From Patescibacteria group bacterium (lineage in GTDB: Bacteria; Patescibacteriota; Patescibacteriia; UBA10025; JAHIVO01): DNA of 64,000 nt. Both the position numbers and the translations under genes were made by a program. Every line of letters begins with the position of its first letter. Position 1 is the first letter of the stretch. The notes under the pieces are model-generated. The model worked only from the letters and a program-made list of their open reading frames with translations. It did no database searches and was not told the DNA's origin. Below are positions 25,906 to 64,000 of the stretch, one piece after another. The DNA is taken from assembly GCA_041650915.1 (NCBI GenBank), contig JBAZKE010000002.1, positions 144,638 through 208,637 on the forward strand, in the 5' to 3' direction.

Positions 25906-25920
25906 ATTTTTAAATAATTG

Positions 25921-26805
25921 TTAGATGGCAGGTACCTGTTCTTTGAGTTTTTCGTAGATTGAGTACGGCACTGAGAAGTAGTCCCACTGGCACCGGATTG
26001 CCTCGTGCTTGGTAAAATTAATGTCTCCATGGTAGTCGCTGCCGCCTGTGATGAGGAGCCCATGGGCGAGTGCGAAGCTCTGGTAGTGTTCAATCTGGTG
26101 CCAGCTATGGTATGGGGAGAGCACCTCAATGCCTTCGAGGCCGGCATCAATGAGCTCGCGTATCAGCTTATCCCCGTCGTAGTTGAGCTGCTGTCCCGGG
26201 TGGGCGAGCACAGCGAATCCTCCTGATTTTCGTACGATCGCTATTGCTTCATCGGTCGGCAGTTCTGATACGCGGAGTGCGGCGGGTTTGTCATAACCCA
26301 TGAAGTATTTCACTTTTCCAAAGAAATCCTGCTTGTCCGGGGGGAGCTCTCGCTGCATTTTTTTGATATTTTTTTGGTACCGCTCGAGCTCCCTGATGAC
26401 GTGCAATACGCCGCGGTTTACCGCGGGACCGTTAAAGATAGCGGTTTCATCGAGCGTGAAGCCCTGCTCCTGGAGGCTGTGAATCGACTGTCGCACATTG
26501 TGTTCATTATCTTCCTGGAGTTTCCGGAGCGCACGGGAGAGCTCCGTGTCGCCGAGTTCAAAACAGTAGCCGAGCAGGTGGAGGTTTTGGTTACGGTACC
26601 GGGTGTATATCTCAACTCCCGGAACAACGTGGATGCCGAATTCATCCGCGCATTCGATTGCCTCATCGATGCCATTGATTCCATTGTGGTCGGTCAGCGA
26701 AAGTACCGCAGTGCCGTTCTCTTCCGCACGCTTCATGAGGCTGCTGCATGAGCGGTCGCCGTCCGAGTAGTGTGAGTGGGTATGGAGATCAATTGTTTGT
26801 TCCAT
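25921..26805 (-). CDS. PHP-domain metal-dependent phosphoesterase
   Basis: IDLHTHSHYSDG ... LSLTDHNGINGIDEA. PHP family His/Asp motifs. 294 aa. Confidence 0.7.
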   Translation of the reverse strand: MEQTIDLHTHSHYSDGDRSCSSLMKRAEENGTAVLSLTDHNGINGIDEAIECADEFGIHVVPGVEIYTRYRNQNLHLLGYCFELGDTELSRALRKLQEDNEHNVRQSIHSLQEQGFTLDETAIFNGPAVNRGVLHVIRELERYQKNIKKMQRELPPDKQDFFGKVKYFMGYDKPAALRVSELPTDEAIAIVRKSGGFAVLAHPGQQLNYDGDKLIRELIDAGLEGIEVLSPYHSWHQIEHYQSFALAHGLLITGGSDYHGDINFTKHEAIRCQWDYFSVPYSIYEKLKEQVPAI

Positions 26806-26807
26806 AG

Positions 26808-27797
26808 TTATGGCTTACGGTATCGTTTTTTGAGCATCGCCGTCAGCGTAACGCCGGAAAAGCGTGCGAGCTCCCTGAAGTCCCGTTTATCCGGGTAGTA
26901 GTTGAACCCGATGACGTTGAATACGGCTTGGACAAACACGGTCGCATTCCACAGCTCGTCAAAGTTTTTAAAACCGCGGTACTGCCGTTTAAATTTACTG
27001 TGGAGGGAACGCTGCCAAGCGGAATGGCGTGAAGCGCGCATCCAGACGGTCACCACGTCCTTCATGATTGAAGCCCAGCCGACGTTTTCCCAGTCGATAA
27101 TTTTTGGCCGTCCGCCGGCTTCGAGCATGTGGGGTGCATACAGCTCCTGGTGCGCGAGGACCCGGCGGGTAGTGCGGTACACCGGCCCGTACCGCTTGAA
27201 TTCCCGCCGGATGAGCAAACCGGCGTTCGGCCACCGGATAAACGATTCCACCAACGGGAGGTTCGGGCCGATGAACTGCCAGAGGTAGTTCAGCGTCTGC
27301 GGCGCGTACAGGAGCCTCTTGAAGTTTGACGGAAGGTCTTTTTCCCGGATGCTGTGGAGTTCCCTGAGGAGATTGAGCAGCCACCGCTGCCGGTCTTCCG
27401 TGAAGAAGGAAGGGACGAAGCGGATGTTGCCGCCGTTAATATTTTGCGGCTTACCGCCGACGTATTCGCGTATGTACCAGGCTCGCGGGCCGATCTCTGA
27501 GCTTAAAATGAGAGGAGCGCTTTGCCGGAGGAGCTTGTGCGGCGAGCTATTGATGTAGCGCAGGAAAAGGATCTCGCGGGCGAACTTCTGGTTAGTCAGG
27601 TGGTCGCAGGAGCGGGGGTATATGCTGGTTTTGAACAGCGCTTGTTGCCCGTCTTTTTTCCCGACCGCAATGTAGTACCGGCTTCCGAACTTGATTTTTT
27701 TGATGGGGATAAAACGTTCGCCCCTGTGCAGTTCCCTGATTACCCGGCGTGCGCGTTCACGGTGCCGGCGTTTCGTAGCGGTAGTGCCTTTGATCAT
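26808..27797 (-). CDS. Phosphotransferase-family (APH/ChoK-like kinase fold) protein, divergent
   Basis: C-terminal region AHQELYAPHML ... KIIDWENVGW resembles the APH catalytic loop and IDWE motif, but with an atypical HQE in place of HxD. Basic N-terminus. 329 aa. Confidence 0.4.
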   Translation of the reverse strand: MIKGTTATKRRHRERARRVIRELHRGERFIPIKKIKFGSRYYIAVGKKDGQQALFKTSIYPRSCDHLTNQKFAREILFLRYINSSPHKLLRQSAPLILSSEIGPRAWYIREYVGGKPQNINGGNIRFVPSFFTEDRQRWLLNLLRELHSIREKDLPSNFKRLLYAPQTLNYLWQFIGPNLPLVESFIRWPNAGLLIRREFKRYGPVYRTTRRVLAHQELYAPHMLEAGGRPKIIDWENVGWASIMKDVVTVWMRASRHSAWQRSLHSKFKRQYRGFKNFDELWNATVFVQAVFNVIGFNYYPDKRDFRELARFSGVTLTAMLKKRYRKP

Positions 27798-27799
27798 AG

Positions 27800-29179
27800 C
27801 TATTTTCTGGTGATCAGGTCTTTCTTTTCCTTGAGCTCTTTGATCCGGTTCCGAATCTGCGCGGCGCGTTCATACTCCTGCGTCCTTGCCGCCTCGTGCA
27901 TTTGTTTTTCCAAGTTGCCGACCATGCTATTGAATTCAGCTTCGGGTATGTAGGGTATGTCGGTCGTTATGCGCTGCGTCACGTCCTCGTCTGCAAGTTT
28001 TGCGAGCGTGTCAACCTTGCCCGACCGCTGCCAATCGAATGCGGTGAAAATGATGCGCCGGTAAAGCTCCTCGGCGCGTTTTTTTTCAGCCGGGCCTACC
28101 GCCGCGGCCTGTACGACGAGGTTGAGATCCCGCGCGCCCGCCTCAATCATTTCGATGCTCCACCACGGCATCGCCGAAGCCCACCAGTACTGGTCTGAAT
28201 GGAGCGCACGGTCGAGCAGGGAACGCGTCGTCGGGTAGCTTTTCGCGGTTTTTTTCATCGCATCGACGCTCTGTATCGCGAGATTCGTGAGTTCCCACTG
28301 CATCGCGTGGATTTCATTATCTTTATCCTGCCATCTGGAAAACGGAGTATTGCGTTCAATGTCCCGCTTCATGAGAGCCCATGAGGACGGCCGCGGATCC
28401 ACTGAAGATCGTTTGGTGAAGTGGTCTGGCAGCTCTGAGAGCGTGACGGAGGTGAGTTTTTTATTTTCATACAGGTCAAAAAGGAGCTGCTCGAGCCCGG
28501 GACGGTGGTGTCCAAACGTTTCGCCGTCCATTGCGGTTACGAGATATTCATTACCGCCAACGCGGGTTCCGAGGAGCTGGATGAGCATGTCACTCGTGAA
28601 TACGCTCATGCCGATTTCAGCGGAGAGGATCCTGAAGCTCGCTTCACGTTCACGGAAAAAAATGAAGAAATCATCGTGGCCTCTGAGCGTGTAGATTTGC
28701 GACCAGTCGATTTTTTTTAGATCGCCGGAATGTGCGAGCTCGTCGAGGATGAGCCATCGGAAACCCATGGAGGCGGCGATATCGCCGACTTTTCTGTCGT
28801 ACGCCATCTCGGGCGGGAAGAATCCAGCCGGAGCGTACGCCGCGCCGAAGAACTTTTTATTTGTTTCCGTGTTGAGCTCAATTTGCCGGATGATTTCTTT
28901 TTTCGGCATGAGGGGGAGAAAGGGGTGGTACTTTGCGCTGCCGGTGAGCTCTACCTGGCCGCGTTCGGCGAGGAGCTTGAGATCGGCAATCACATCGAGG
29001 CAGCCGTACTGGTTGAAGAGTTCGGTGAGGCCGGCATTGATATTGATCGTCGCCCGGGCGTCAGGGCGTTGCTTTAAGCCCGCGAGCACCTTCCGATAGC
29101 TCTCGTTTGCAATCTTTCTGACCCAGTACTCTTTCTGGGTCGGAGGCTGGTAGATGTGGAGGAAGTTTGCCCAGTACAT
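27800..29179 (-). CDS. Glycoside hydrolase family 57 protein (alpha-glucan-active), with C-terminal UVR-like motif
   Basis: GH57 signature regions are present: HIYQPP (HQP), FFPPEMAY (nucleophile Glu), AMDGETFGHH (acid/base Asp). C-terminus has EYERAAQIRNRIKELKE resembling a UvrB/C UVR motif. 459 aa. Confidence 0.7.
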   Translation of the reverse strand: MYWANFLHIYQPPTQKEYWVRKIANESYRKVLAGLKQRPDARATININAGLTELFNQYGCLDVIADLKLLAERGQVELTGSAKYHPFLPLMPKKEIIRQIELNTETNKKFFGAAYAPAGFFPPEMAYDRKVGDIAASMGFRWLILDELAHSGDLKKIDWSQIYTLRGHDDFFIFFREREASFRILSAEIGMSVFTSDMLIQLLGTRVGGNEYLVTAMDGETFGHHRPGLEQLLFDLYENKKLTSVTLSELPDHFTKRSSVDPRPSSWALMKRDIERNTPFSRWQDKDNEIHAMQWELTNLAIQSVDAMKKTAKSYPTTRSLLDRALHSDQYWWASAMPWWSIEMIEAGARDLNLVVQAAAVGPAEKKRAEELYRRIIFTAFDWQRSGKVDTLAKLADEDVTQRITTDIPYIPEAEFNSMVGNLEKQMHEAARTQEYERAAQIRNRIKELKEKKDLITRK

Positions 29180-29199
29180 TGGTGTTGGTGGTGTTAGTA

Positions 29200-30453
29200 T
29201 TAAGCTGAAATTTTTTTGCCGCCGAGGAACCGTACGGCAGCCCCCTCATTCGTAGCGAGGTAACTGTCCGCAGTCGACCTAAAGGTCATTTTTTGCTGCC
29301 ACGTTCGTGCGAGCGAAATGATCGTCGACGCGAGCTTTACGGCTTGTGGATCGCGCGGGCTGACCAGGTCTGCAGCTGAGAGCAGCTCACCCGTTTTTTT
29401 TGAAATGATCTCGAGGCTCCACCACGGCTTTGCGGACGCCCACCAGAATTGGTCAGATGCATACCGCCTGTCGAGCAGTTCTCGTGCCGTCGCGTAGTTC
29501 TCGTGCGCCTTATGCCGTTCGATGAGGGCAGTGACGCGCCTGAGCAGCTCCCACTGGTTTTTATGGATGTCATTATGCGGGTCATTCCACAGCACGTACG
29601 GGTTGCCGCGCCTCATTTCACGTTCCTGTGTTGACCAGCTTGCCTTTCGGGGGCTGATAACCTCATTCTTCGTGTAGGTATGGAGAAGTTCGCTCATTGT
29701 CACCGTACGGATATTGTGGGAGGTGACAAGCCGTTTCCAGTAGGAGTCCCAGCCCTTCCGGTGGTGTCCGAGATTTTCGCCGTCCATGGCCGTAATGAGG
29801 GCTGTTCCGCTTCTGCTGTCTTGCCTAATCGTTTCCCAGAAACTCTCGAGCCGTTTCGGATTGCCATGAAAGGAAAAGTAGTCGCTAATCACTCTGTTTC
29901 GGAATACGATATTGAGCTGAGTGTTTTTAATGCGGTAGCGAGCGTTGAATAAGGTTGTGCTGAGTGTTCCGTTTTTAGATATTTCATCGGCGATAAGCCA
30001 CCGGTAGCCGAGTTTTTCGATCACCGGCGCAATTTTTCCTCCGTACGCCATTTCGGGCGGAAAAAATCCACGCGGGCGGTATACGGGGCCGAAGTGCAGG
30101 CGGTTGACCCGGGCGTTGAGTTTGACTTGCCGTCTGATTTCATGGGCTGGGATGAGCGGCAGGATCGGGTGGTACTGCGCAGAGCCGGTGAGTTCGATCT
30201 GCTTCCTCTTGGCGAGCCGTGCAATCCGGCCGATGATATCCGCCTGCCCGCACTCGGCGAGCTGCTCGGTCAGGGAGCCGGTGACATTGAGGGTGATTTT
30301 TATGCGGGGGTTTTTCGTGAGGATCGCGCAGAGCGGGCGGTAGCTTTCACGAGCTACCTTGCGGACGATTGCAGGCGACCAGTTTGGAGGCTGGTATACG
30401 TGGAAGAAGTTTGCCCAGCGAAGCGGTTGGCGCTTAGTGCTTTGATTGTGCAT
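29200..30453 (-). CDS. Glycoside hydrolase family 57 protein, paralogue 2
   Basis: Clear paralogue of the preceding gene: FFHVYQPP, FFPPEMAY, AMDGENLGHH. No UVR tail. 417 aa. Confidence 0.7.
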   Translation of the reverse strand: MHNQSTKRQPLRWANFFHVYQPPNWSPAIVRKVARESYRPLCAILTKNPRIKITLNVTGSLTEQLAECGQADIIGRIARLAKRKQIELTGSAQYHPILPLIPAHEIRRQVKLNARVNRLHFGPVYRPRGFFPPEMAYGGKIAPVIEKLGYRWLIADEISKNGTLSTTLFNARYRIKNTQLNIVFRNRVISDYFSFHGNPKRLESFWETIRQDSRSGTALITAMDGENLGHHRKGWDSYWKRLVTSHNIRTVTMSELLHTYTKNEVISPRKASWSTQEREMRRGNPYVLWNDPHNDIHKNQWELLRRVTALIERHKAHENYATARELLDRRYASDQFWWASAKPWWSLEIISKKTGELLSAADLVSPRDPQAVKLASTIISLARTWQQKMTFRSTADSYLATNEGAAVRFLGGKKISA

Positions 30454-31909
30454 CGTGCTTATTTTTAATGGCGCGACCGTAGAGCTGCACGTATTTTTTA
30501 GCGGGGAGCTCCCACGAGTACGACTGCTGCATCCCTCTCCACGTCAGGTATTCCCATGCCTGCGTGTATTTATAGTTTTCGAGTGCACGGGTCAGCGCGA
30601 TGAGGAACGCATCGCGCGCGTACTGCCGGAAAACGAATCCGTTTCCCTTCCTCGTTTTCGGATTGTAGTTCATGATCGTGTCAGAGAGCCCTCCCGTTTC
30701 GTGGACGATGGGTATTGAACCGTACCGGAGGCTCTTGAGCTGGGAGATGCCGCAGGGCTCAAACCGGGATGGCATGAGAAACATATCTGAGCCGGCATAC
30801 ACTTTGGATTCCATCTCTTCCGTGAAGGGGGTATAGATGGCGAGTTTCTTGGGGTACCGGCGCGCTACCTTTTTGAAGAAAATGACATACTCCCTGAAAC
30901 CGCTGCCAACGATGGCGATTTGCAGGTTCATGCGCATGAGCGTATCGATTGTTTCCATGATGAGCTTGAAGCCCTTTTGTTCGGTAAGGCGGTTAACCAC
31001 GCCGATCACTGGGATATCCGGGTTTTTTTCGAGGTTCAACTTTTTTTGGAGCACGAGCTTATTTTTCTTTTTGCGGCTGAGCGTATTCCAGTCGTATTTG
31101 AATTCAATGTTACCGTCGAATGCCGGATTATGGACGGTGTAGTCGATCCCATTGATGATTCCGTGCAGGTAATCTTTACGGTCGCTGAGGTACTTTTCGA
31201 GGCCTTGGCCGAATTCAGGCGTCGTGATTTCTTCCGCATACCGTTCGCTGACCGTATTGATGGCGTCTGCGTGGAGAATGCCGCGCTTGGAAAAATTGAG
31301 ATATTTCAATTTGCCGATACGCTGCAGCGGATTGCCTTTCCCGTCATCGGCGTAGTATTTTTTCAGTTTCCACCAGTCTCCGCCCGACTGAAAGGTGAGG
31401 TTGTGTATCGTAAAAACTGATGCCGTATTCCGCAGCGAGGGGTACTTGGAACCCTCAAACCGCATCATATTTGGAATGAGTCCGGCTTGCCAGTCGTGGC
31501 AGTGGATGACGTCGGGCTTCAGCCTCTTAAGCTCAATCAGTTTGAGCGCTGCAATGCTGAACGTGCAAAATCGGAGGTTATCGTCCGGGTGCCCGTATAT
31601 TTTTGACCGCCCCGTGAAGAGCTTTTCGTTGGCTACGAAGTAGATCCGGAGGTTCTTGCTGAAGTCGAACGCGTAGTAGGAAATTGGAAATTTATTCCTG
31701 CCGACGACGACCGTCGATTTAACGTTCAGTTTTTCGAGTGGGAGGCCCTGCTGCTTTATGAAGCTATAGTACGGAGTAATAATCGAAACCATGTGCCCGA
31801 TGTTCGCGAGCGCTTTCGGCAGTGCCTTGGCGACGTCGCCGAGGCCGCCCGTTTTAGAGTAGGGAGCGACTTCTGAGGCGATACTCGCAATGTGGAGGCT
31901 GGAAGTCAT
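30434..31909 (-). CDS. glgA: Glycogen/starch synthase (GT5 family), copy 2
   Basis: IASEVAPYSKTGGLGDVAKALPKAL KTGGL motif. 491 aa. 20-nt overlap with the GH57 paralogue. Confidence 0.85.
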   Translation of the reverse strand: MTSSLHIASIASEVAPYSKTGGLGDVAKALPKALANIGHMVSIITPYYSFIKQQGLPLEKLNVKSTVVVGRNKFPISYYAFDFSKNLRIYFVANEKLFTGRSKIYGHPDDNLRFCTFSIAALKLIELKRLKPDVIHCHDWQAGLIPNMMRFEGSKYPSLRNTASVFTIHNLTFQSGGDWWKLKKYYADDGKGNPLQRIGKLKYLNFSKRGILHADAINTVSERYAEEITTPEFGQGLEKYLSDRKDYLHGIINGIDYTVHNPAFDGNIEFKYDWNTLSRKKKNKLVLQKKLNLEKNPDIPVIGVVNRLTEQKGFKLIMETIDTLMRMNLQIAIVGSGFREYVIFFKKVARRYPKKLAIYTPFTEEMESKVYAGSDMFLMPSRFEPCGISQLKSLRYGSIPIVHETGGLSDTIMNYNPKTRKGNGFVFRQYARDAFLIALTRALENYKYTQAWEYLTWRGMQQSYSWELPAKKYVQLYGRAIKNKHDAQSKH

Positions 31910-31918
31910 GTATGCTTG

Positions 31919-32383
31919 TTAGAAGATTTTTGTCTGCGCGCAGCAGATCGCCACCGCCAGTGCGTCAGCCGCGTCGTCGGGCTTCGGTATGCTCTCGAGG
32001 TTGAGCTGGCGCTGAACCATTTTTTGTATCTGGGTTTTCGTAGCGAGGCCGTAGCCGGTGAGTGCCTGTTTGATCTGCATGGGGGTGAATTCACGCATCG
32101 GCACGCGGTGCTGCCATACGGTGAGCACGGCGACGCCTCGCGCCTCACCGACGGAGAGGGCGGTCTTTACGTTTTTTGAAAAGAAGAGCTTCTCAATGCC
32201 AACGGTCGCTGGATGGTATTTCCGGAGGAGCTTCGAGAGCTCACGGCTGATGGTATCGATGCGGCTCCCGAACGCTTCGCGGGGACCCGAGGTAATGACC
32301 CCGTACGCTACGGCTTTGAGGCGCGATGGCGTGTGTTCGATGATGCCATAGCCCGTAATCGCGAGCCCAGGGTCGATGCCCAT
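31919..32383 (-). CDS. ruvC: Crossover junction endodeoxyribonuclease RuvC
   Basis: MGIDPGLAITGYGIIEH N-terminus and RuvC acidic residues. Start set at the internal Met; the ORF-track N-extension is rejected. Lies downstream of yebC, a common arrangement. Confidence 0.85.
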   Translation of the reverse strand: MGIDPGLAITGYGIIEHTPSRLKAVAYGVITSGPREAFGSRIDTISRELSKLLRKYHPATVGIEKLFFSKNVKTALSVGEARGVAVLTVWQHRVPMREFTPMQIKQALTGYGLATKTQIQKMVQRQLNLESIPKPDDAADALAVAICCAQTKIF

Positions 32384-52413: not shown

Positions 52414-52629
52414 GTGATGAATGGCTACGACGACGAAAATCCCGAATCTATGTTTCAAAAGCTGTCCGAGCATGCCAGGGAGCTCAAGGACAAGTACCAC
52501 AAGATGGATTCGGATACGAAAAAGAAGATCCTAACCGGCGTGGGCGGCGCACTCGCGTTGCTCGCGAGCATCGGCATCATGCGCAAGCTCAAGCCGAAGG
52601 GCAAGAGCAAGGACGACGTTGAGGAGTAG
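52414..52629 (+). CDS. Small hypothetical protein with C-terminal TM helix
   Basis: 71 aa with a charged N-terminal half and a C-terminal hydrophobic helix. Convergent with the QueC-like operon end. Confidence 0.3.
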   Translation: MMNGYDDENPESMFQKLSEHARELKDKYHKMDSDTKKKILTGVGGALALLASIGIMRKLKPKGKSKDDVEE

Positions 52630-52647
52630 TGCGCTGCCGCTGGGCCG

Positions 52648-54024
52648 TTACGAAGGCAGGTTTTTGCGGAGTTGTTTAAGCACGCTGCTAAAGAGGCGCA
52701 GCAGGCGTTTTTCGTACGGCGGCGGCAGGTTGCGCGCCGGCTTGAGCGTCGTGTAAAAATTGCGGTAGTGCTGCCACGGCTTGAGGTGCGGCAGCTTTTT
52801 CATTTTGAAATCTCGGTCAAAGGGGGTCTGCACCTTCCGCCTCCACAGGCTGTAGAAGCCAAAGTCGAGCTCCTGGTTTGATCCCGTTTCCCGGTCCCGC
52901 CCGAAGTAGTGGCTGAAGATTCCCGGCTCCCTGAAGGGATCGCCGACAAATCCCACCGCGGCAGGGTCGATGCCGAACGCCCGTGCGAAGAGGTACATCC
53001 GCGCGCACTTGTAGCACCGGTGGCACCACGCGGACCCCCGGCGGAGCGGATGCTGTGCGCTGCATGAGAATTGGAATCTGCCGATTTCCGGGTAGCGCGT
53101 ATGGAGAAAGTAAAAGATGGCGCTCTCCTCGAGCGGCTCGAGCGAGCTGTGGACGCTGCACTGGCCGCGCGTCAGCAAACGGGCCATGTTGCTCTGTGCG
53201 CCAGTCCACCCGCTCGTCTGGTCAAAGCCCGACGGGTACAGCTTCCACCCGCGGTACTGTTCGGTATCGTTATTCGAGTGTTCGTTCCCGAACAGCATGT
53301 ACCGCGCGCCGTAGCGGTAGACGAATGGCATGAGCAGCAGCACGAGCAGCGTCGTCTGTGCGCCCCACCCAAGCTCGGTCTTGGGGATTCCCCTGAATGC
53401 AGCCCCGTACCGGAACAGGCCCGATTCGTGTGAAATGTAGTGGGTGCGCACCTTAAACTGCCGGCTGAACGTTTCCAGGGCCCGCAGCTTATAGTCGCGT
53501 TCGAACGGGTGCGCCGGCTCCTCGCAGTATATGAGCACCGGCTCGATCCCGAGCTCTCTGCAGAGTGCAACCGTCAGTAAGCTTTCCTTGCCAAACGTAA
53601 ACGGCACGATTGCCACATCGCGGCGCGACCTGAATTGTGGGACGTCCCCGCCTTCGAGCCATGTGCTGCCGCCCGTTTTAAACGTGCACTCGAGGTTGTA
53701 GAATGCCTGTATGAGCGAGAGGTGCTTGCGGCGGTCCGACCGTTCGACATCAATCATGTCGTACAGCTGGTTTTTGAAAAAAATCGGCTCAAATACCGGC
53801 GCAGGAAAATTGTACGTTACGGCGGATGTGTTGAGGATGAGCGGCACGAAATTGGTGCTCGCATACGCGATATTTTCCGACAGCACGCGCCGGAGGTTCG
53901 GTGACAGCTCACGCCATACGGTAGCGGGGTATGACGTGCTAAATGCGCGCCGGCCGATGCGGATGTCGAATCCGGAGCGGGTAACCTGTACGCTAATGGG
54001 GGGCAGCTTCTCGCGACGTCGCAT
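52648..54024 (-). CDS. QueC-like PP-loop ATP pyrophosphatase superfamily protein with N-terminal extra domain
   Basis: Variant PP-loop AIVPFTFGKESL. A downstream FGNEHSNND segment. C-terminal SCSAQHPLRRGSAWCHRCYKC...FGIDP parallels the QueC CxnCxxCxxC zinc motif and tail. The ORF-track start at 54168 overlaps the upstream gene. Start set at an internal Met. Confidence 0.5.
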   Translation of the reverse strand: MRRREKLPPISVQVTRSGFDIRIGRRAFSTSYPATVWRELSPNLRRVLSENIAYASTNFVPLILNTSAVTYNFPAPVFEPIFFKNQLYDMIDVERSDRRKHLSLIQAFYNLECTFKTGGSTWLEGGDVPQFRSRRDVAIVPFTFGKESLLTVALCRELGIEPVLIYCEEPAHPFERDYKLRALETFSRQFKVRTHYISHESGLFRYGAAFRGIPKTELGWGAQTTLLVLLLMPFVYRYGARYMLFGNEHSNNDTEQYRGWKLYPSGFDQTSGWTGAQSNMARLLTRGQCSVHSSLEPLEESAIFYFLHTRYPEIGRFQFSCSAQHPLRRGSAWCHRCYKCARMYLFARAFGIDPAAVGFVGDPFREPGIFSHYFGRDRETGSNQELDFGFYSLWRRKVQTPFDRDFKMKKLPHLKPWQHYRNFYTTLKPARNLPPPYEKRLLRLFSSVLKQLRKNLPS

Positions 54025-54035
54025 GGGTTTGTGAA

Positions 54036-56447
54036 TTACGTTTTTGTTGCTTTCGACTTGTACCGCTCGATGCTCAGGCGGATGATTTCCTCGAGCAGGT
54101 TTTCGAACGAAATGCCGGCGAGTTTTGCAGCGGACGCCAGGCCGTGGGGATCGGAATAGTTGAGCCACGGCGCGGGGTTGACCTCGAGCACGTATGGATT
54201 ATCGTCCCGGTCCACCTTGACGTCTACTCTGCCGTAGTCTTTGCAGTTGAGTATATTATACGTATCGAGCGCGATTTCGGTAATGAGGGATTCGATTTTT
54301 TTGCTGATGTTCTTTGGCGGCAGCTGGCGCGTTACCATGGCCTGATCGCCGCGCTGGAGCCACTTCGACTCGTACGTATTGATGTGCCAGGGCTTCTGCG
54401 TGCCGCCGTGGAAGATCGTGCGGCAGAGCGGCAGCACCCTGAGGTTTTCTTCACCGTTGCCGAGAATGTACACTTCGTATTCATCTCCGTCGATGTATTC
54501 CTCAATGAGGGCCGGCCGTTTCATCGTTCGGATGATCCGCTCGAGCTCCCGCTGCAATTCTTTCCTGTTGGTGACGATTGATTGGTCCGTGATGCCGAGG
54601 CAGTAATCGGTGCTCGAGGGCTTGACGATCAGCGGAAATTCAAGCTCGTCGTCAATTTCGTCTTCGAGCTCGTACGCGTAGTCCCACGCGGGCGTGGGAA
54701 TTTCATGGTACGCAAGCAGCTTCTTAAACCGTATCTTGTCGGCAGCGAGCGAGTGGGTAAAAACATCCGATCCCGTATAGGGGATTTGGAGCGCATCGAC
54801 GATCGCCGTTATCTGCGGCTTGAAACTGTCATCGTCGTAGAGCCGTTCCCCCAGGTTGAAGATGAGGTCGATTTCTCCCTTCCGGAGCACATCAAGCGAG
54901 CCCAGGAAATTATTGAGGTTGATCGTCGATACGTGGTATCCGATTGTTTCGAGCGTTTTTTGGACTGCAGTCGCCGATTCGGTAATGTTTTTTGCGATGG
55001 GATCCGACGTCTCTTTGTAGATATTGGCGAGTATGCCGATCTTGAGGTTTTTTATGTCATCCGATTCCCCTCGGTTGATCGCCTTGAGGCGCGCGGTCCT
55101 GATGAGCAGATTTTTGTTGAGGACGGCAGCAGACGTGCGGCTCTTTCGCTCTGTCTTGCCGAGTGAAGATTCCGGGTCGAACTTAACCACCTTGTACGAA
55201 ATCCGGGTGAGTATATCCTCGAGGTTATCCTGCGCGTCAATGGTATTTTCACCGGTCACCGTCAGCCATCCGAGGTGCTCAAAACCCTCCGGGGGAACGA
55301 GGATGGGGTCTCCGATGTGCTTGTAGATTTCGACCTCTTCTACGTATTTGAGTTTTTTGAGCGTGTCGGGATTATCGAGCTCGACGAGCATGCCCGATTC
55401 GTCAGGGTGGAGGTCCCACCCGATGATGTACTTTTTGGGAGTCTCCGGCGCGTGGATTTTCGGTATGTACTGGCCGATTGCGATTTTAACCGCGTACTCG
55501 ATCAGGTCAATGCCCCACGCGCTCTTCGTGTATGAGTACACGTAGTCGCCGCCCATCCTGAGGTTTACCTCAATCGGGAAAAAGCCTTTCTTCGAGTGCT
55601 TCGCCTCGAAATGAATGCACGCGTTCTGTATGCCGAGCTTCTCGACCGTCATCTCCGCCATCTCGAGTATATAGCTCTGTACGTTTGCCGGCAGGCTCGA
55701 GGGAATTGCCTGGCCGCTGTCGACAAAGAACAAACCCTTGTCCTTGTTGAAGTTGTCCGATATCGAATAAAATTTAATCCTTCCGTTCTGCAGGAGGATG
55801 TCAATATCGACCTCATCGCCATCGATGTACTCTTCTGCGAAGATGTCGAGCCCGTCTGACAGCGCGGACTCGATGCTCGTCGAGAGGTTGTTTTTAACGT
55901 AGCGGTAGAGGTCGGTGAGGCCTTCTTTTTTTTCAACCTTGACGACGTATGCGCTGCTCGATCCGTACGCCGGCTTGATGACGATCGGAAAAGCAAATTG
56001 GTCCCGCAGGTACTGCAGGTCTGACTCGTGCTTGACGAGGAGGTGCTGGGGGGTCGGAATATCGTGCGTGCGGCAGAACTCTCGGAAGAGGAATTTGTTC
56101 CGCACATTCTTGGCGATGCCGTACGGCACGCCAGTCAGATTGAATTTATCGACAATCCGCGAGGTGAGGAGTACGTCATCTTCCCAAAAGGTAAGCGCCC
56201 CGTCGAGCTTGATGTGGGGATTGGCGCTCAGGAATTCTTTGATTGCGGAGATCGCTTCATTGTAGTTGGTATTGTCGGCGATGATCCAGTGGTCAACATA
56301 CTGCTGCGCCCAGTTTTTTTCCCGGTTGAGGACGACAATCGTCAGGCCGAGCCGTTTGAGGCGCTGGATGATGAAGCGTTTTTTAATGGATCCGGTATTG
56401 ACGAGCAGGATCGTTTTGCCCTGCAGCGGGCTGTCATGCTGCCTCAT
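54036..56447 (-). CDS. Fused double ATP-grasp ligase (N-terminal amino-acid-ligase-like ATP-grasp + C-terminal D-Ala-D-Ala-ligase-like ATP-grasp)
   Basis: 803 aa. First half: FPIVIKPAYGSSSAYVVKV ... EEYIDGDEVDID ATP-grasp. Second half: FPLIVKPSSTDYCLGI ... EEYIDGDEYEVYILG ... DYGRVDVKVDRDDNPYVLEVNPAPW, typical of the Ddl family. Confidence 0.75.
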   Translation of the reverse strand: MRQHDSPLQGKTILLVNTGSIKKRFIIQRLKRLGLTIVVLNREKNWAQQYVDHWIIADNTNYNEAISAIKEFLSANPHIKLDGALTFWEDDVLLTSRIVDKFNLTGVPYGIAKNVRNKFLFREFCRTHDIPTPQHLLVKHESDLQYLRDQFAFPIVIKPAYGSSSAYVVKVEKKEGLTDLYRYVKNNLSTSIESALSDGLDIFAEEYIDGDEVDIDILLQNGRIKFYSISDNFNKDKGLFFVDSGQAIPSSLPANVQSYILEMAEMTVEKLGIQNACIHFEAKHSKKGFFPIEVNLRMGGDYVYSYTKSAWGIDLIEYAVKIAIGQYIPKIHAPETPKKYIIGWDLHPDESGMLVELDNPDTLKKLKYVEEVEIYKHIGDPILVPPEGFEHLGWLTVTGENTIDAQDNLEDILTRISYKVVKFDPESSLGKTERKSRTSAAVLNKNLLIRTARLKAINRGESDDIKNLKIGILANIYKETSDPIAKNITESATAVQKTLETIGYHVSTINLNNFLGSLDVLRKGEIDLIFNLGERLYDDDSFKPQITAIVDALQIPYTGSDVFTHSLAADKIRFKKLLAYHEIPTPAWDYAYELEDEIDDELEFPLIVKPSSTDYCLGITDQSIVTNRKELQRELERIIRTMKRPALIEEYIDGDEYEVYILGNGEENLRVLPLCRTIFHGGTQKPWHINTYESKWLQRGDQAMVTRQLPPKNISKKIESLITEIALDTYNILNCKDYGRVDVKVDRDDNPYVLEVNPAPWLNYSDPHGLASAAKLAGISFENLLEEIIRLSIERYKSKATKT

Positions 56448-56557
56448 AGTGCCGGGGCGACAATTGCAAAGATGCCTCGTTCGTGGACGCGGTAACCGAA
56501 TAGTACTTTTTTCATTGGCACGTAAATCGTTAGTGGCAAGGTTTATCTACGCTAAAA

Positions 56558-56585
56558 AGTATACCGCTTTTTATGCGGATGTCTA
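56558..56585 (-). promoter_or_regulatory. Sigma70-like promoter (TAGACA-16-TATACT) upstream of micro-ORF/ATP-grasp gene
   Basis: Read on the minus strand in the 160-nt gap between the ABC-2 permease and the ATP-grasp gene. Confidence 0.4.
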
Positions 56586-56609
56586 TAGACGGCCGGGAGG
56601 TGTGGAAAA

Positions 56610-57746
56610 CTAATTAGTGAACTTGAACGATTTCCAGGCGAGCGCGAAGGATACGACGATCCATCCTCCAATGAAGGCAAGCTGCGTGTAGATGTTCTGT
56701 ATTCCGCCGCCGTTGATCGCGACTTCGCGGAGCGCTTCGATCATCGGCGTGAGCGGCAGGTACTGCACGATTCCCGCAATCGCCTTCGGCAGGGTTTCCG
56801 ACGGGAAGAACACGCCGGAGAAGAACATCATCGGCATGGTCACGACCTGGGACAGCGCTTCCGCGGTCTTCGTGTTTTTCGAATACCCCGCGACCGCGAA
56901 TCCGATGTTCAGGAACACGACGCTTCCGAGGATGCAGATGAGGTAGAGGAGGAGGTAATTGCCGTACACGTTGACGCCGAAGGCGAGCTGTGCGAGCAGT
57001 ATGATGAGCGAGATCTGTATGATGTTCACAAAGAGGTATGAGAGCACTTCGGCCGCAAGAAAATTGCGTATTTTAATCGGGGTTGCGGACAGCCGCTTCA
57101 AGAGTTTTTGTTCACGGTATCTGCTGATGCCCGTTGCGATGCCGATCACTGCTGACATCATGATTGCCATGCCGAGTATGCCCGGCATGATGATGTCTAT
57201 GTACTTGATGTTTTTTGATTGGATGTTTTCGGTCGTGTATGAAAACAGTGTCGGTGCGCCTGCGGCCTGCAGGTTCATTTGGTCGATAAACTTATCGACG
57301 ACGCTCAGTGCGATTTGGTTCGTAGTGATGTTGCTCTCATCATAGTATACCTCGATGGGCGAGAGGCTTGGCAAGGCTTGGGACGGCGGGACTGCCGTAT
57401 CGCCCGCGCGGTCCTCCGGCATCTCAGCGGCTTCCGGAACGCTGAAATCTTCCGGTACGACGATGATGGCCTGGATGTCGCCATCGGCGAGCTGCTGCTT
57501 TGCCGCATCAAGCGTTTCGGGGGCATCCTGCTTCTTGAGGAACTCCAGTTTGTCAAAACCAGCCTGGAAGCTTGCCGAGAGTTCGCTCTCCGCGTGGTCG
57601 AATAGAATGTATTTCATGTCTCCCATCCGCTCAAAATCGAACAGCCCGAAGATGACGATGAACATGAGCGGGAACAGGAGCGACCAGAAGATCGCCTGCT
57701 TATCGCGGAAGGTCATTTTGATGTTGGCGACGAAAAGTTTTAACAT
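56610..57746 (-). CDS. ABC-2 type transporter permease
   Basis: 378 aa. N-terminal TM, a large extracytoplasmic loop and 5 C-terminal TM helices: the ABC-2 family architecture. 4-nt gap to the ATPase gene. Confidence 0.75.
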   Translation of the reverse strand: MLKLFVANIKMTFRDKQAIFWSLLFPLMFIVIFGLFDFERMGDMKYILFDHAESELSASFQAGFDKLEFLKKQDAPETLDAAKQQLADGDIQAIIVVPEDFSVPEAAEMPEDRAGDTAVPPSQALPSLSPIEVYYDESNITTNQIALSVVDKFIDQMNLQAAGAPTLFSYTTENIQSKNIKYIDIIMPGILGMAIMMSAVIGIATGISRYREQKLLKRLSATPIKIRNFLAAEVLSYLFVNIIQISLIILLAQLAFGVNVYGNYLLLYLICILGSVVFLNIGFAVAGYSKNTKTAEALSQVVTMPMMFFSGVFFPSETLPKAIAGIVQYLPLTPMIEALREVAINGGGIQNIYTQLAFIGGWIVVSFALAWKSFKFTN

Positions 57747-57749
57747 ACG

Positions 57750-58682
57750 TTACTCGCGGAGTTTTTTGCCGGTTAGGTCGAGGAATACGTCCTCGAGGTC
57801 AGCGGAGATTACTTCGAGATCCTGCATGAAGACGTTTGTCTTTTCAGCCCATTGGTACAGTTTGGGCAGGACCTCATTGCTCTTCGTTACCTTGAGGTGG
57901 TATACGTTATCCCCGTTTTTTTCCGTATTGAGGACGCCGTCGATGCGCTCGAGCTGGGCAAGGTCAAACCGCTCTTCTGCGCGGAAGTGGATTCGAGCGG
58001 ATGACTTGAGCTGGCGGACGAGGTTTTTGGGCGTATCAAGCGCGATAATCCTGCCCTCATCCATGATGCCGACGCGGTTGCACAGGTACTCGGCCTCTTC
58101 CATGTAGTGGGTGGTCAGTATTACCGTTTTGCCCTGCGCATTAATTTTTTTGATAAATTGCCACATGAGGTGCCGGGCCTGTGGGTCGAGCCCGGTCGTC
58201 GGCTCATCAAGGAAGACGATCTTCGGGTCATTGACGAGCGCCGCGCAGATCGAGAAGCGCTGCTGCTGCCCGCCGGAGAGCTGCTTGATGAGCGCCTTCT
58301 TTTTATCTTTCAGCTGTACGATTTCAAGGAGCCCGTCGGGATCGACCGCTTTTTCATAGAAGCTGCCGAAGAGCTTGAGGATTTCCCCGAGCCTGAGGTA
58401 TTCGTAGTACGCTGATGACTGGAGCTGGATGCCGATGAGGTTTTTGACCTTGTTCAGCTCGCGCTGCGTACTCTTGCCCTCGATGAGCGTCTCGCCGCCT
58501 GTCGGCTGCTGCAGCCCTTCGATGATTTCGAGGGTCGTGGTCTTGCCGGCGCCGTTCGGGCCGAGCAAGCCGAAAATTTCCCCCCGGTGCACTGAAAAAG
58601 AGACGGCGTCCACGGCAACGAGGTCCGTTTTATCCGGTTCTTTGAACTTTTTTGTTAATTTTTTTACCTCAATGACGTCCAT
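57750..58682 (-). CDS. ABC transporter ATP-binding protein
   Basis: Walker A GPNGAGKTTT, signature LSGGQQQR, Walker B IVFLDEPTTGLD, H-loop. 310 aa. Confidence 0.9.
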   Translation of the reverse strand: MDVIEVKKLTKKFKEPDKTDLVAVDAVSFSVHRGEIFGLLGPNGAGKTTTLEIIEGLQQPTGGETLIEGKSTQRELNKVKNLIGIQLQSSAYYEYLRLGEILKLFGSFYEKAVDPDGLLEIVQLKDKKKALIKQLSGGQQQRFSICAALVNDPKIVFLDEPTTGLDPQARHLMWQFIKKINAQGKTVILTTHYMEEAEYLCNRVGIMDEGRIIALDTPKNLVRQLKSSARIHFRAEERFDLAQLERIDGVLNTEKNGDNVYHLKVTKSNEVLPKLYQWAEKTNVFMQDLEVISADLEDVFLDLTGKKLRE

Positions 58683-61967: not shown

Positions 61968-62378
61968 TTAATTTTTTTGACAATACTTTTGATTAAAATC
62001 ATTCTTATCACCGTATTCAGAAAAAGCCTCTTGATGTTTGGGTGGAAATAAATCTCGGTCCTTTTCATGTTTAATGCCACACCAATAGAGCTCGGTTTCG
62101 GCGCCCATTTTTGCCCAGTAATGAATCACTCCGTTTGCATAGCCGCAATACATGCAATAAAGCTTTTGAAATAAAGAAAGGTACGGTAATTTCGCACGGT
62201 CGGTAATCTTGATATAGTCTCTGCGTTTGACATACGGAATCCGCATCAGTGGAAAGCAGATTCTATGGTAGATTTCCGCCCAAATATCCAGTAGTAACAC
62301 CGGTAGTACAACTGTTGAGATAATCGGTGTAACAATCATATGTTTGAGCATCCTATGAGAATTTTTCAGATAAATCAT
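61968..62378 (-). CDS. Hypothetical protein (AT-rich block), Cys/His/Tyr-rich
   Basis: 136 aa. N-terminal TM then YCMYCGYANGVIHYW...WCGIKH. No family recognised. Flanked by palindromic 17-mers. Confidence 0.35.
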   Translation of the reverse strand: MIYLKNSHRMLKHMIVTPIISTVVLPVLLLDIWAEIYHRICFPLMRIPYVKRRDYIKITDRAKLPYLSLFQKLYCMYCGYANGVIHYWAKMGAETELYWCGIKHEKDRDLFPPKHQEAFSEYGDKNDFNQKYCQKN

Positions 62379-62503
62379 ATAGATAACAATTAGTACATTT
62401 TATATAACGTTTGAGTCTCATGCGCAGTCCCGTCGAATGACCGGATGGCGTATATACGCTGTTAGGTGAAGTTAGCCCATGAATAATAAGAGTGAAAACA
62501 AAA

Positions 62504-62914
62504 TTAGTTTATTGTAATACTGTCCGTTGTTTCGCCAATTGTATATGGGTACACTCCTTTATTATTGAAGGTGTATGAATACGTATTGTTCGGCTTAATA
62601 ATTATATCGATGCCCTGACCTGTAAAATCAGCGCGGAATACAACATCGTGATCTGTTAAATTGTTCCATACGATTGTATTAGGATTTGAACAGTTGCCCC
62701 GAGTCACCATAAAATTTTGCATCGACAGACCATCCTTCAAATATAAATTGGTATTTTTATATTCATCCGAGTTGAGAGTTTTATAGTCGATCGTAAACCG
62801 TTCGGTTCCTGAGCACCCACCGTCGTCAGTAATAACTAACCATATAAAAAAAGCAATCACGATAACAACTACTGGTAAACCTAGCTTTACTAGTCGAGAT
62901 TTTGTAGTGGTCAT
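62504..62914 (-). CDS. Hypothetical membrane-anchored protein (AT-rich block)
   Basis: 136 aa. N-terminal TM anchor and an Asn/Thr-rich beta-rich domain. Confidence 0.35.
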   Translation of the reverse strand: MTTTKSRLVKLGLPVVVIVIAFFIWLVITDDGGCSGTERFTIDYKTLNSDEYKNTNLYLKDGLSMQNFMVTRGNCSNPNTIVWNNLTDHDVVFRADFTGQGIDIIIKPNNTYSYTFNNKGVYPYTIGETTDSITIN

Positions 62915-62935
62915 ATTTATATATTATGGGTTAAT

Positions 62936-63100
62936 GTCACCTAACGTTTGTGATAACCGAAATCCCGAGTGACGAAGCGAATCGTGATTTAGGGAAATGT
63001 CGAGCCGAGGCATTTTCCGGTTATCACTTGTTAGGCGTCCTGAGCGTAACGAAGTGAAGCTCAAGCGCAGCGGGGTCGAAGCGATAGCGGAGAAGTTTAA
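62936..63100. repeat. Short intergenic repeat element with 20-bp inverted-repeat arms (copy A)
   Basis: Arms CACCTAACGTTTGTGATAACCG (62938-62960) and CGGTTATCACTTGTTAGGCG (63017-63038). Contains CCCGAGTGACGAAGCG and CCTGAGCGTAACGAAGTG words shared with copy B. Confidence 0.4.
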
Positions 63101-63101
63101 A

Positions 63102-63887
63102 TTAATAATGCCCTAAAATTTTTTTTACTTGCTCCATACCTTTTTCGGAAACCAGTTCCAAATTAATCGGGGTTATTGATATTTTTTCCTCGGCTAAAGC
63201 ATGTAAATCGGTGCCTGGTTTAGTTTTGGAAAAATCAATTGGCGGAGAAACGTATTTATAGACCTCTTCGGTTTTATGAAATAGTTTTCCATACGGATCT
63301 CTATGGGGGCGAGTAACAACAATTTCTGCATCTAATTTAACGTTGAATGGTATGTTTATGTTTAACAGGTCAGTTTCGCCAAGGGGTTTATCAAAAAATA
63401 TCTTTATTATATCCACGGTGATTTTAGCAGCATTATGGAAAACAATTTCATCTACCTCGGAATGATTGACTCCGTTCGGAATGTGAATTGAGGCCGCTAT
63501 CGATTTTAGCCCATCAATTGAGGCTTCCATCGAGGCGCCGATTGTCCCTGAGCTCAAGATACGGCCGTGCCCAGTGTTTAGACCAGTGTTTATTCCTGAA
63601 ACTACTAGCTTCGGTCTTTCTTTTAAAATATCATACAGACCGATTTGGACACAATCAGCCGGTGTACCGTTTAAGGAAAAAATTTCAAATTCTTTTAGTT
63701 TGATAGGAGTTATTGAAAGAGCGTTAGCCTGAGAAATGGATTTCCCAATCCAACTTTGTTCCGTTGAGGGTGCGATGGCGGTAACGGAAAAATGTTTTGA
63801 AAGCTCCTTCAATAACGGGTAAAAACCGACAGACTGAAAGCCATCATCATTTGTTAGTAATATATCGGTCATAAAATTTTGGGACAT
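63102..63887 (-). CDS. surE: 5'/3'-nucleotidase SurE
   Basis: MTDILLTNDDGFQSVGFYPL N-terminus (the TNDDG motif). 261 aa. AT-rich codon usage unlike the rest of the window. Confidence 0.8.
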   Translation of the reverse strand: MSQNFMTDILLTNDDGFQSVGFYPLLKELSKHFSVTAIAPSTEQSWIGKSISQANALSITPIKLKEFEIFSLNGTPADCVQIGLYDILKERPKLVVSGINTGLNTGHGRILSSGTIGASMEASIDGLKSIAASIHIPNGVNHSEVDEIVFHNAAKITVDIIKIFFDKPLGETDLLNINIPFNVKLDAEIVVTRPHRDPYGKLFHKTEEVYKYVSPPIDFSKTKPGTDLHALAEEKISITPINLELVSEKGMEQVKKILGHY

Positions 63888-63900
63888 TATTAATTTAAAT

Positions 63901-63960
63901 TACGCCTAACGTTGCGGGCTAGCCGATGTCCCGAGCGTAGCGAAGGATATGGGTGAGTGG
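63901..63960. repeat. Short intergenic repeat element (copy B, related to 62936-63100)
   Basis: ACGCCTAACGTT ... CCCGAGCGTAGCGAAGG shares the CCTAACGTT and CCYGAGYGWMGCGAAG words with copy A. Lies on the other side of surE. Confidence 0.35.
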
Positions 63961-64000
63961 GTAATGTTTGTTGCTATAAAATTTCTTCTATACGTTTCTG

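Follow-up and report, generated by a model that had tools for sequence, protein, structure and literature searches.

In a 64-kb stretch of a Patescibacteria genome (64,000 nucleotides, hereafter the window), the minus-strand gene at 52648-54024 encodes a 458-aa protein, Q, with a QueC-type PP-loop fold, which profile comparisons place in the MurL superfamily as a divergent member. The functional unit at this locus is the pair formed by Q and the adjacent fused double ATP-grasp ligase (54036-56447), not the set of four genes proposed in the initial annotation. We consider the chances about even that the two proteins are a ligase-epimerase pair analogous to MurD2-MurL, whose product would be a short D-amino-acid-containing peptide.

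Gene layout and recurrent neighbours of Q

ORF calling in the window recovered all four (4/4) of the co-directional minus-strand genes described previously. These genes, together with the domains and sites discussed below, are as follows.

57750-58682, minus strand: ABC ATPase, DrrA-type, 310 aa (ABC_tran, 9.8e-30; TIGR01188 drrA, 7.3e-77)
56610-57746, minus strand: ABC-2 permease, 378 aa (ABC2_membrane_3, 2.5e-48)
56558-56585, minus strand: promoter-like site TAGACA-16-TATACT, 10/12 matches (consensus match only)
54036-56447, minus strand: fused double ATP-grasp protein, 803 aa (ORF call and domain models)
55128-56447, minus strand: LAL-type N half of the 803-aa protein, approximately residues 1-440 (Pfam and PDB matches)
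54036-55040, minus strand: Ddl-like C half of the 803-aa protein, approximately residues 470-803 (Dala_Dala_lig_C, 3.8e-34)
52648-54024, minus strand: Q, 458-aa MurL-like protein with a QueC-fold PP-loop (ORF call, fold and profiles)
53581-53598, minus strand: variant PP-loop motif TFGKES of Q, residues 143-148 (alignment of homologues)
53005-53064, minus strand: four-cysteine cluster of Q, C321 to C340 (alignment of homologues)

The genes had been called tightly spaced, which holds at the ATPase/permease (3 nt) and ligase/Q (11 nt) junctions but fails between the permease and the ligase, because this gap is 162 nt. The start at 52414 given earlier for the 458-aa gene is wrong; 52414-52647 holds a convergent plus-strand ORF of 70 aa. 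A Patescibacteria MAG already has an identical 458-aa sequence on record, annotated as a hypothetical protein.

Conservation of the neighbourhood was counted in CPR bacteria and DPANN archaea, over 77 related loci in which Q had been called as a gene. A GRASP2-family ATP-grasp gene adjoins Q in 39 of the 77 loci and lies at most two genes away in 45, with the fused double ligase present in 27 of these. The loci come from numerous CPR lineages as well as from DPANN archaea, and the identity of Q falls as low as approximately 30%. The ligase and the PP-loop protein are thus conserved as a module, as the initial annotation had supposed.

Other genes also recur next to Q in related genomes. They encode an enolase-superfamily protein closest to L-Ala-D/L-Glu epimerase (1.1e-50), which is a frequent operon partner in other CPR genomes, a LysA-like PLP decarboxylase (3.7e-45), a third ATP-grasp protein and, in archaea, a DgcN-like protein. 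These neighbours share a theme of D/L-amino-acid chemistry on N-blocked residues. The enolase-type epimerase, the PLP decarboxylase and the third ATP-grasp protein are absent from the 64-kb window. Enolase-superfamily L-Ala-D/L-Glu dipeptide epimerases (YcjG, YkfB and the Thermotoga type) invert the C-terminal residue of a short peptide, as is proposed here for Q, but their fold is unrelated to that of Q and their mechanism is metal-assisted, reversible and ATP-independent.

A graspetide or other RiPP cluster was also considered and rejected. No conserved precursor peptide gene was found, a 23-codon upstream ORF being present in this genome only; the N-terminal domain of Q resembles RNase H and not an RRE; and the ATP-grasp modules are of the LAL and Ddl type. 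The locus therefore shows no signs of a graspetide cluster, in line with what had been stated before.

Protein Q, its MurL relatives and its ligase partner

The Q protein of the window has no match in Pfam, none in NCBIfam at E ≤ 0.01 and no PDB sequence match. A confident AF2 model (pLDDT 94.5, pTM 0.93) comprises, in order, an RNase H-like N-terminal domain, a PP-loop Rossmann domain, a four-cysteine ribbon and a C-terminal helical domain. The N-terminal domain covers approximately 130 aa instead of the roughly 170 aa previously assigned to it. The QueC architecture ascribed to the protein stands as regards the PP-loop fold and the four-cysteine site, and does not account for the C-terminal helical domain of approximately 110 aa, which QueC lacks. 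Both the TFGKES PP-loop and the zinc-ribbon-type cysteine motif reported earlier are present. TFGKES takes the place of SGGxDS in classical PP-loop enzymes and of GGGKDS in MurL, with Phe replacing the second Gly of the classical motif, a position at which MurL has Gly as well; across 46 homologues G145 and K146 never vary, and S148 is kept in 98%. Because this Gly is replaced, ATP binding by Q is only assumed. The cysteines (C321-x12-C334-x2-C337-x2-C340, with K339 between C337 and C340) presumably form a putative Zn site, by analogy with QueC, and all four are invariant in the same 46 homologues, as are W333 and K339.

MurL is the ATP-dependent epimerase of an alternative peptidoglycan pathway; it requires ATP and Mg, forms AMP and converts a terminal L-Glu to D-Glu in one direction only (PMC5808125, PMC8788868), by a mechanism that these papers give as a hypothesis. 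The reference pair for this D-Glu route is MurD2-MurL of Xanthomonas oryzae (XOO_1320/XOO_1319), and MurL is represented by NCBIfam NF041275 and the Pfam domains MurL_N (PF26299) and MurL_epimerase_C (PF26298). The initial annotation had missed MurL as the specific known relative of Q.

Several lines of profile evidence tie the two families together. NF041275 gave collinear matches in distant Q-family members, with E values down to 6.3e-7, and a profile built from these members, searched against 5.8 billion sequences, found MurL-type proteins at E 2e-13 and 1.5e-12. The two retrieved proteins scored 8e-104 and 3e-102 on NF041275, and one of them is fused to a MurD-type ligase. Using hhalign, the Q alignment matched one MurL-type protein at E 7e-15 and a 24-sequence MurL alignment at E 9e-23 (99.5% probability, 294 columns), spanning residues 134-445 of Q and 123-433 of MurL. 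The same residue occupies 24 of the 35 columns conserved in both families; among the 24 are G145, K146, S148, E248, E300, S320, C321, W333, C334, C337, K339, C340 and E385. G145, K146 and S148 of Q align to G134, K135 and S137 of MurL, and the cysteine region aligns to S296-C297, W311-C312, C315, K317 and C318. Furthermore, some Q-family proteins carry precomputed matches to PF26298. The relationship is distant: identity between Q and MurL is approximately 18%, a plain MurL HMM run on the ORFs of the window gives Q an E value of only 1.4e-4, the NF041275 equivalog cut-off of 700 bits is not reached, with the best Q-family member at 28 to 30 bits, and the Q of the window does not match this model.

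Q and MurL are also alike in general layout, both being approximately 450 aa long with an N-terminal domain, a PP-loop, cysteines of the SC...WCxxCxKC type and a C-terminal helical domain, and in both systems a ligase gene adjoins the epimerase-like gene. What differs is the partner. Canonical CPR MurL adjoins a Mur ligase in a cell-division/cell-wall cluster or is fused to a MurD-type ligase, whereas the Q pair lies outside such a cluster, its ligase is of the ATP-grasp kind (LAL and Ddl-like), and no member of the Mur-ligase family occurs among the annotated neighbour families of Q loci. Each epimerase-like protein thus has its own kind of ligase. Another difference from MurD2-MurL is that the Q family reaches DPANN archaea.

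The 803-aa partner consists of two unlike ATP-grasp halves, which bears out its earlier description as a fused double ATP-grasp protein. Pfam models assign the N half to ATP-grasp_4 (1.3e-25, 90.3 bits with a cut-off of 27), ATPgrasp_N and LAL_C2 (5e-10, 40 bits with a cut-off of 29.4), and its PDB matches are the L-amino acid ligase BL00235 (3vot, 1.8e-23), RizA (2.1e-13) and BacD (2.5e-8). The C half, recognised by Dala_Dala_lig_C, scores 189.9 bits on the Ddl model NF002378, below the cut-off of 243, with the first 24 model positions unmatched. Compared with E. coli DdlB, it keeps K97, K144, E180, K215, R255, D257, E270 and N272, while the D-Ala-binding positions are replaced (E15 by I, S150 by Y, Y216 by W and S281 by H). 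As far as sequence can tell, this half is Ddl-like, with the ATP/Mg and catalytic Arg/Lys residues kept and the D-Ala-binding residues missing; calling it clearly D-Ala-D-Ala-ligase-like was justified for the ATP/Mg residues and went too far for D-Ala binding and the NF002378 cut-off. Known LALs (BL00235, RizA and BacD) and Ddl each resemble one half, but the fusion in a single chain sets the 803-aa protein apart.

A proposed ligate-then-invert reaction and its alternatives

Under the reading in which the pair is analogous to MurD2-MurL, the 803-aa ligase would make a di- or tripeptide from amino acids by way of acyl-phosphate intermediates. Q would then activate the C-terminal alpha-carboxylate of this peptide by ATP-dependent adenylation, with PPi as the by-product, and the acyl-adenylate would acidify the C-alpha proton. 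The C-terminal residue could then be inverted from L to D, after which hydrolysis would free AMP and the D-terminated peptide. An L-amino acid would thus be joined first and epimerised in place afterwards, an ATP-grasp counterpart of MurD2-MurL. It is by analogy that we infer epimerase chemistry, a peptide as substrate and ligation as the first step. Given that the partner is not a Mur ligase and that the pair lies outside a cell-division/cell-wall cluster, Q probably acts on a free short peptide and not on a UDP-MurNAc-peptide. That the product might serve as a cell-wall stem-peptide building block is suggested only by the kinds of genes found around Q in related genomes, and the occurrence of the family in DPANN archaea speaks against a role confined to peptidoglycan.

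Structurally, Q matches the QueC fold best, and this fold would fit amidation, nitrile formation or conjugation chemistry just as well. Q might accordingly be a QueC-style amidating or ligating enzyme that adenylates the ATP-grasp product and passes it to ammonia or an amine, so that the product would be a peptide-like metabolite that is amidated at its C-terminus, bears a nitrile or is extended. Apart from the exporter, this chemistry is the one first proposed for the locus, and we grade it weaker than the epimerase reading, as a possible but doubtful alternative. It draws on the structural matches, which include the QueC-like Cap9, QatC, YcfA and the nitrile synthetase ArtA, and on a Komeilibacteria operon in which Q belongs to a biosynthetic-looking cluster of eight to nine genes with a methyltransferase and a decarboxylase. 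The missing glutaminase domain is no obstacle to it, since QueC uses free ammonia. However, the Q alignment is far closer to MurL than to E. coli QueC (E 0.12 by hhalign, against E 9e-23), Pfam QueC (PF06508) does not match Q even at E ≤ 10, and the C-terminal helical domain is common to Q and MurL. Q shares with QueC the PP-loop Rossmann fold and a C-terminal four-cysteine site, and differs from it in the extra N- and C-terminal domains and in TFGKES for the canonical SGGxDS. The recurrent neighbours are of the epimerase/racemase type, with no amine-donor or glutaminase genes seen among them. As the specific relative of Q is MurL, inversion of the C-terminal residue is judged likelier than the amidation assumed at first. 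Among QueC-like enzymes, Cap9 and QatC target the C-terminal carboxylate of a polypeptide and not a base; QatC is also close to Q in overall length and aligns along most of it. That Q is a QatC- or Cap9-like defence component which conjugates a deazaguanine base to the C-terminal end of a partner protein is nevertheless highly improbable. Although Q and these proteins of type IV CBASS and QatABCD all have the QueC fold, their gene context and phyletic distribution differ: neither Q nor the ligase matched any PADLOC defence model, which agrees with the earlier exclusion of a Qat operon, no Qat-, CBASS- or deazaguanine-related genes were seen among the annotated neighbours, and the Q family has a broad, housekeeping-like spread over reduced CPR and DPANN genomes that does not resemble a defence island. 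The queuosine pathway had likewise been set aside, and no queuosine/deazaguanine genes (QueD, QueE, QueF or TGT) were seen among the called neighbours with Pfam annotation or among the neighbour families annotated in 80 loci. A further reading, also quite improbable, gives Q a role in RNA or tRNA modification like that of the PP-loop enzymes TilS, ThiI or TtcA, in which case its link to the ATP-grasp genes would be indirect.

The remaining alternative concerns the transporter, which the initial annotation had placed in the module. If all four genes formed one synthesis-and-export operon, the peptide made by the pair would leave the cell through the ABC-2 transporter; the genes are indeed co-directional and neighbouring here, and no terminator-like site was found on the minus strand of the 162-nt gap. 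Against this, not one of the 77 loci has an ABC-2 permease homologue near Q, just two have an ABC ATPase at most four genes away, DrrA/DrrB-type ABC-2 pairs are common general exporters, and the gap upstream of the ligase gene holds the promoter-like site. Being a consensus match only, this site lends weak support to separate transcription of the ligase-Q pair and the ABC genes. We regard such an operon as improbable; the DrrA-type ABC-2 transporter is an independent neighbour outside the conserved module.

Implications for CPR bacteria and DPANN archaea

The pairing of Q with ATP-grasp partners, read as ligation followed by inversion, tentatively raises a broader and rather unlikely possibility, namely that the Q family and these partners provide reduced-genome CPR bacteria and DPANN archaea with a racemase-independent route to D-amino-acid peptide building blocks. 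Each L-amino acid would be added by ligation, and an ATP-driven, MurL-type epimerase would then invert it as the new C-terminal residue. In the fuller operons the partners add the dipeptide-epimerase-like enzyme, the LysA-like decarboxylase and the third ATP-grasp protein, and the products might be units of the L-Ala-D-Glu or D-Ala-D-Ala type, or a whole stem-peptide-like oligopeptide. If true, this would extend the logic of MurD2-MurL from one peptidoglycan step to free peptides and to archaea.

Gene layout and the fused ATP-grasp ligase

The initial annotation had described four minus-strand genes as one ligase and exporter module, and all four were confirmed as intact open reading frames (ORFs).

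Genes of the four-gene region (window positions)
57750-58682, minus strand: ABC ATPase, 310 aa, intact gene
56610-57746, minus strand: ABC-2 permease, 378 aa, intact gene
54036-56447, minus strand: double ATP-grasp protein, 803 aa, intact gene
52648-54024, minus strand: Q, a PP-loop protein with the QueC fold, 458 aa, intact gene

The longest ORF for Q extends 48 codons beyond the ATG at 54024, to an upstream GTG; the ATG is backed by the alignment of homologues and by a 458-aa database protein of identical sequence, encoded in a Patescibacteria (CPR) metagenome-assembled genome. From the ATPase to Q, the genes are separated by 3, 162 and 11 nt, so the description of the set as tightly spaced holds for the two short junctions and not for the 162-nt gap between the permease and the 803-aa gene, which contains a promoter-like site by sequence match only (TAGACA-16-TATACT). 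The ATPase and permease form an ordinary DrrA/DrrB-type ABC-2 pair according to Pfam and NCBIfam. The module start had been misplaced at 52414 because of a convergent 70-aa ORF on the plus strand (52417-52629), to which this end belongs rather than to Q. That ORF is an annotated gene of the public contig, has a hydrophobic stretch (GVGGALALLASIGIM) near its C-terminus followed by a Lys-rich tail, and had no match in Pfam or PADLOC. Furthermore, a 23-codon ORF (MKKVLFGYRVHERGIFAIVAPAL; 56444-56515, minus strand) lies inside the 162-nt gap, and its stop codon (TGA) and the start codon of the ligase gene overlap as ATGA. In 30 related loci, the region ahead of the ligase gene showed no comparable conserved peptide, so this ORF may be due to chance or may encode a lineage-specific leader. 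A RiPP reading of the locus was tested and dropped.

Residues 1 to approximately 440 of the 803-aa protein match the Pfam families ATP-grasp_4, ATPgrasp_N and LAL_C2, and among solved L-amino-acid ligases this half matches BL00235 (1.8e-23), RizA and BacD. In the second half, the stretch between residues 490 and 800 (approximate limits) is similar to D-Ala-D-Ala ligase models (Dala_Dala_lig_C, 3.8e-34), in line with the earlier description of this half as D-Ala-D-Ala-ligase-like, but scores below the NCBIfam Ddl cut-offs (189.9 versus 243 bits). In an alignment with E. coli DdlB, the ATP/Mg and catalytic residues K97, K144, E180, K215, R255, D257, E270 and N272 are kept and the residues that hold D-alanine are changed (E15 to Ile, Y216 to Trp and S281 to His), a pattern that recurs in relatives of this half. 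Judged from these residues, the C-terminal half looks like an active ligase but not like a genuine Ddl, and the latter reading was rejected on them.

Elsewhere in the window, the minus-strand block at 23.4-32 kb was considered as a cell-wall cluster and rejected, being devoted to glycogen metabolism. This glycogen-type cluster (23436-32000, minus strand) contains two GlgA paralogues (492 and 491 aa), two proteins with weak similarity to branching enzyme, a GalT-like uridylyltransferase and a PHP-family phosphatase. GC content is 0.39 at 62001-64000, compared with approximately 0.54 in the remainder of the window; the low-GC stretch carries a SurE gene (63102-63887), and two ORFs of equal length (136 aa; 61968-62378 and 62504-62914) without a family match are located there.

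Relationship of the Q family to MurL

Direct family searches with Q returned no match in Pfam, NCBIfam, PDB sequences or PADLOC. A sequence search found at least 100 relatives, and a profile search extended the family to approximately 1,650 representative clusters (50% identity, E ≤ 1e-3), hosted mainly by CPR bacteria and DPANN archaea. G145 and K146 are invariant within the motif F-[TS]-F-G-K-[ED]-S, as are E248, Q318, S320, C321, W333, C334, C337, K339 and C340. The QueC architecture attributed to Q was correct as a structural observation. The extra N-terminal domain spans approximately 130 aa, less than first thought, and a C-terminal helical domain of approximately 110 aa, which QueC lacks, had been overlooked.

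Low-scoring members of the family gave repeated, collinear, sub-threshold matches to NF041275, the NCBIfam model of the ATP-dependent epimerase MurL (best 6.3e-7). A profile of these members, searched against 5.8 billion sequences, retrieved two MurL-type proteins (2e-13 and 1.5e-12) which themselves match NF041275 at 8e-104 and 3e-102, one of them being a fusion with a MurD-type ligase. In profile-profile comparisons, an alignment with the window protein as its first row matched one MurL-type protein at E 7e-15 and a 24-member MurL alignment at 99.5% probability (E 9e-23, 294 columns), whereas E. coli QueC reached only E 0.12 in the same test. The match joins residues 134-445 of Q to residues 123-433 of MurL and covers the PP-loop domain, the Cys ribbon and the C-terminal domain. 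Of 35 columns conserved in both families in a merged alignment, 24 hold the identical residue, including the PP-loop G-K-x-S, E248, E300, S320-C321, W333-C334-x2-C337-x-K339-C340 and E385, together with a few positions in the N-terminal domain. In addition, precomputed Pfam matches on some Q-family proteins are to PF26298, named MurL_epimerase_C. The Q family is a large, unannotated and uncharacterised sister family of MurL, a kinship missed by the initial annotation.

When canonical MurL was sought within the window, Q was the sole scoring protein, and it scored weakly. The MurL-type family is itself abundant in CPR: a search gave more than 6,000 proteins (E ≤ 1e-5), and every named source among the 120 best matches is a member of the Patescibacteria. 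Canonical members in CPR (loci L084-L086, protein P0271) have the Pfam domains MurL_N and MurL_epimerase_C, and in those three loci the gene lies directly upstream of a Mur ligase in a cell-division and cell-wall cluster, adjoining ftsW, murG and ftsA as well in L084. Two reviews name certain Gamma- and Alphaproteobacteria, along with rare actinobacteria, as hosts of MurD2/MurL and do not mention CPR among them (PMC5808125, PMC8788868). The same papers describe MurL in one setting alone, working with the MurD2 ligase to form peptidoglycan D-Glu, report that it requires ATP and Mg, releases AMP and has no known conserved domains, and leave its mechanism open (PMC5808125, PMC8788868).

Conserved gene neighbourhood of Q

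We sampled 80 genomic loci with Q relatives, ranging from 51% down to 28% identity, and called and clustered the ORFs approximately 10 kb to each side of the match; 77 loci had a called Q gene. A ligase of the 803-aa protein's family is immediately adjacent to Q in 39 of these 77 loci and within two genes in 45, comprising 27 fused double ligases, 4 LAL-type halves alone and 14 single Ddl-like ligases. Adjacency occurs in Peregrinibacteria, Kerfeldbacteria, Magasanikbacteria, Komeilibacteria, Falkowbacteria, Roizmanbacteria, Andersenbacteria, Jacksonbacteria and others, and in DPANN archaea with the single Ddl-like ligase. The conserved unit is ligase plus Q. The exporter does not belong to it: none of the 77 loci has an ABC-2 permease homologue, and an ABC ATPase lies no more than four genes from Q in only 2.

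In many loci the pair is extended to a compact operon. In one locus from Komeilibacteria, the order is ligase, Q, a second Q, an enolase-superfamily protein (closest to L-Ala-D/L-Glu epimerase, 1.1e-50), a 366-aa unknown protein, a third ATP-grasp protein, a LysA-like PLP decarboxylase (3.7e-45) and a methyltransferase. The approximately 366-aa protein is conserved, being encoded in 14 loci (for example L087, 13815-14915, and L019, 13806-14906), and had no match in Pfam or NCBIfam; in the extended operon its gene is placed between those for the enolase-type epimerase and the third ATP-grasp protein. With tblastn, neither the enolase-type epimerase, the 366-aa protein, the third ATP-grasp protein and the PLP decarboxylase nor the operon partners NIF3 and a spermidine-synthase-like methyltransferase were found in the 64-kb window.

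In archaeal loci, a DgcN-like gene replaces the extra operon genes. This DUF1611-type gene comes after Q in L047, L073 and L030; L047 and L073 have tandem Q pairs, and MgtE- and NRAMP-like transporter genes follow the DgcN-like gene there. The DPANN archaea of these loci are not known to make peptidoglycan, so a MurL-like enzyme is unexpected in this context. Convergent paralogue pairs of Q relatives, plus then minus strand, occur in Gottesmanbacteria and other Microgenomates (L038-L067, for example L039, L044, L054 and L057). These pairs adjoin secA and the gene of a spermidine-synthase-like methyltransferase, and SerRS and LysRS genes or a single Ddl-like ligase are often close by.

Proposed chemistry and its implications

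MurL has the same architecture as the Q family, which is paired with ATP-grasp peptide ligases instead. Ligase plus Q is a parallel of MurD2-MurL, in that each of the MurL-type paralogues is accompanied by a ligase class of its own. The earlier picture of an unnamed module of ligase and PP-loop protein stands, shorn of the exporter and with the MurL link added. What is new here is the coupling of a MurL-superfamily enzyme to ATP-grasp ligases; our literature search found no paper describing the Q family or this pairing and, on MurL, only two reviews from the Dairi group.

Our analysis establishes the fold of Q, its homology to MurL, the residues that both share and the synteny with the ligase; the chemistry, the substrate and any link to the cell wall we infer. 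In the most economical scheme, the ATP-grasp modules would join L-amino acids, Q would adenylate the new C-terminal carboxylate, and the C-terminal residue would then be epimerised to D and the adenylate hydrolysed. D/L interconversion is a theme among recurrent neighbours of Q (the dipeptide epimerase-like and DgcN-like proteins), which fits an epimerase. Nevertheless, amidation or conjugation like that carried out by QueC, Cap9 or QatC is a real alternative, because the fold permits it and no residue is known to be diagnostic for epimerisation. Roles for Q in tRNA modification or defence find little support.

The Q family is of interest as a large, uncharacterised family concentrated in CPR and DPANN, and it places MurL among QueC-type PP-loop adenylating enzymes. 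If Q amidates or conjugates, it would still add a new peptide-tailoring activity to a lineage of which very few enzymes have been characterised. If Q is an epimerase, ATP-driven chemistry of the 'ligate, then invert' type would reach past UDP-MurNAc substrates, the pairing may explain how ultra-small symbionts are supplied with D-residues, and MurL, seen as a QueC-type PP-loop adenylating enzyme, would gain a structural and mechanistic frame.
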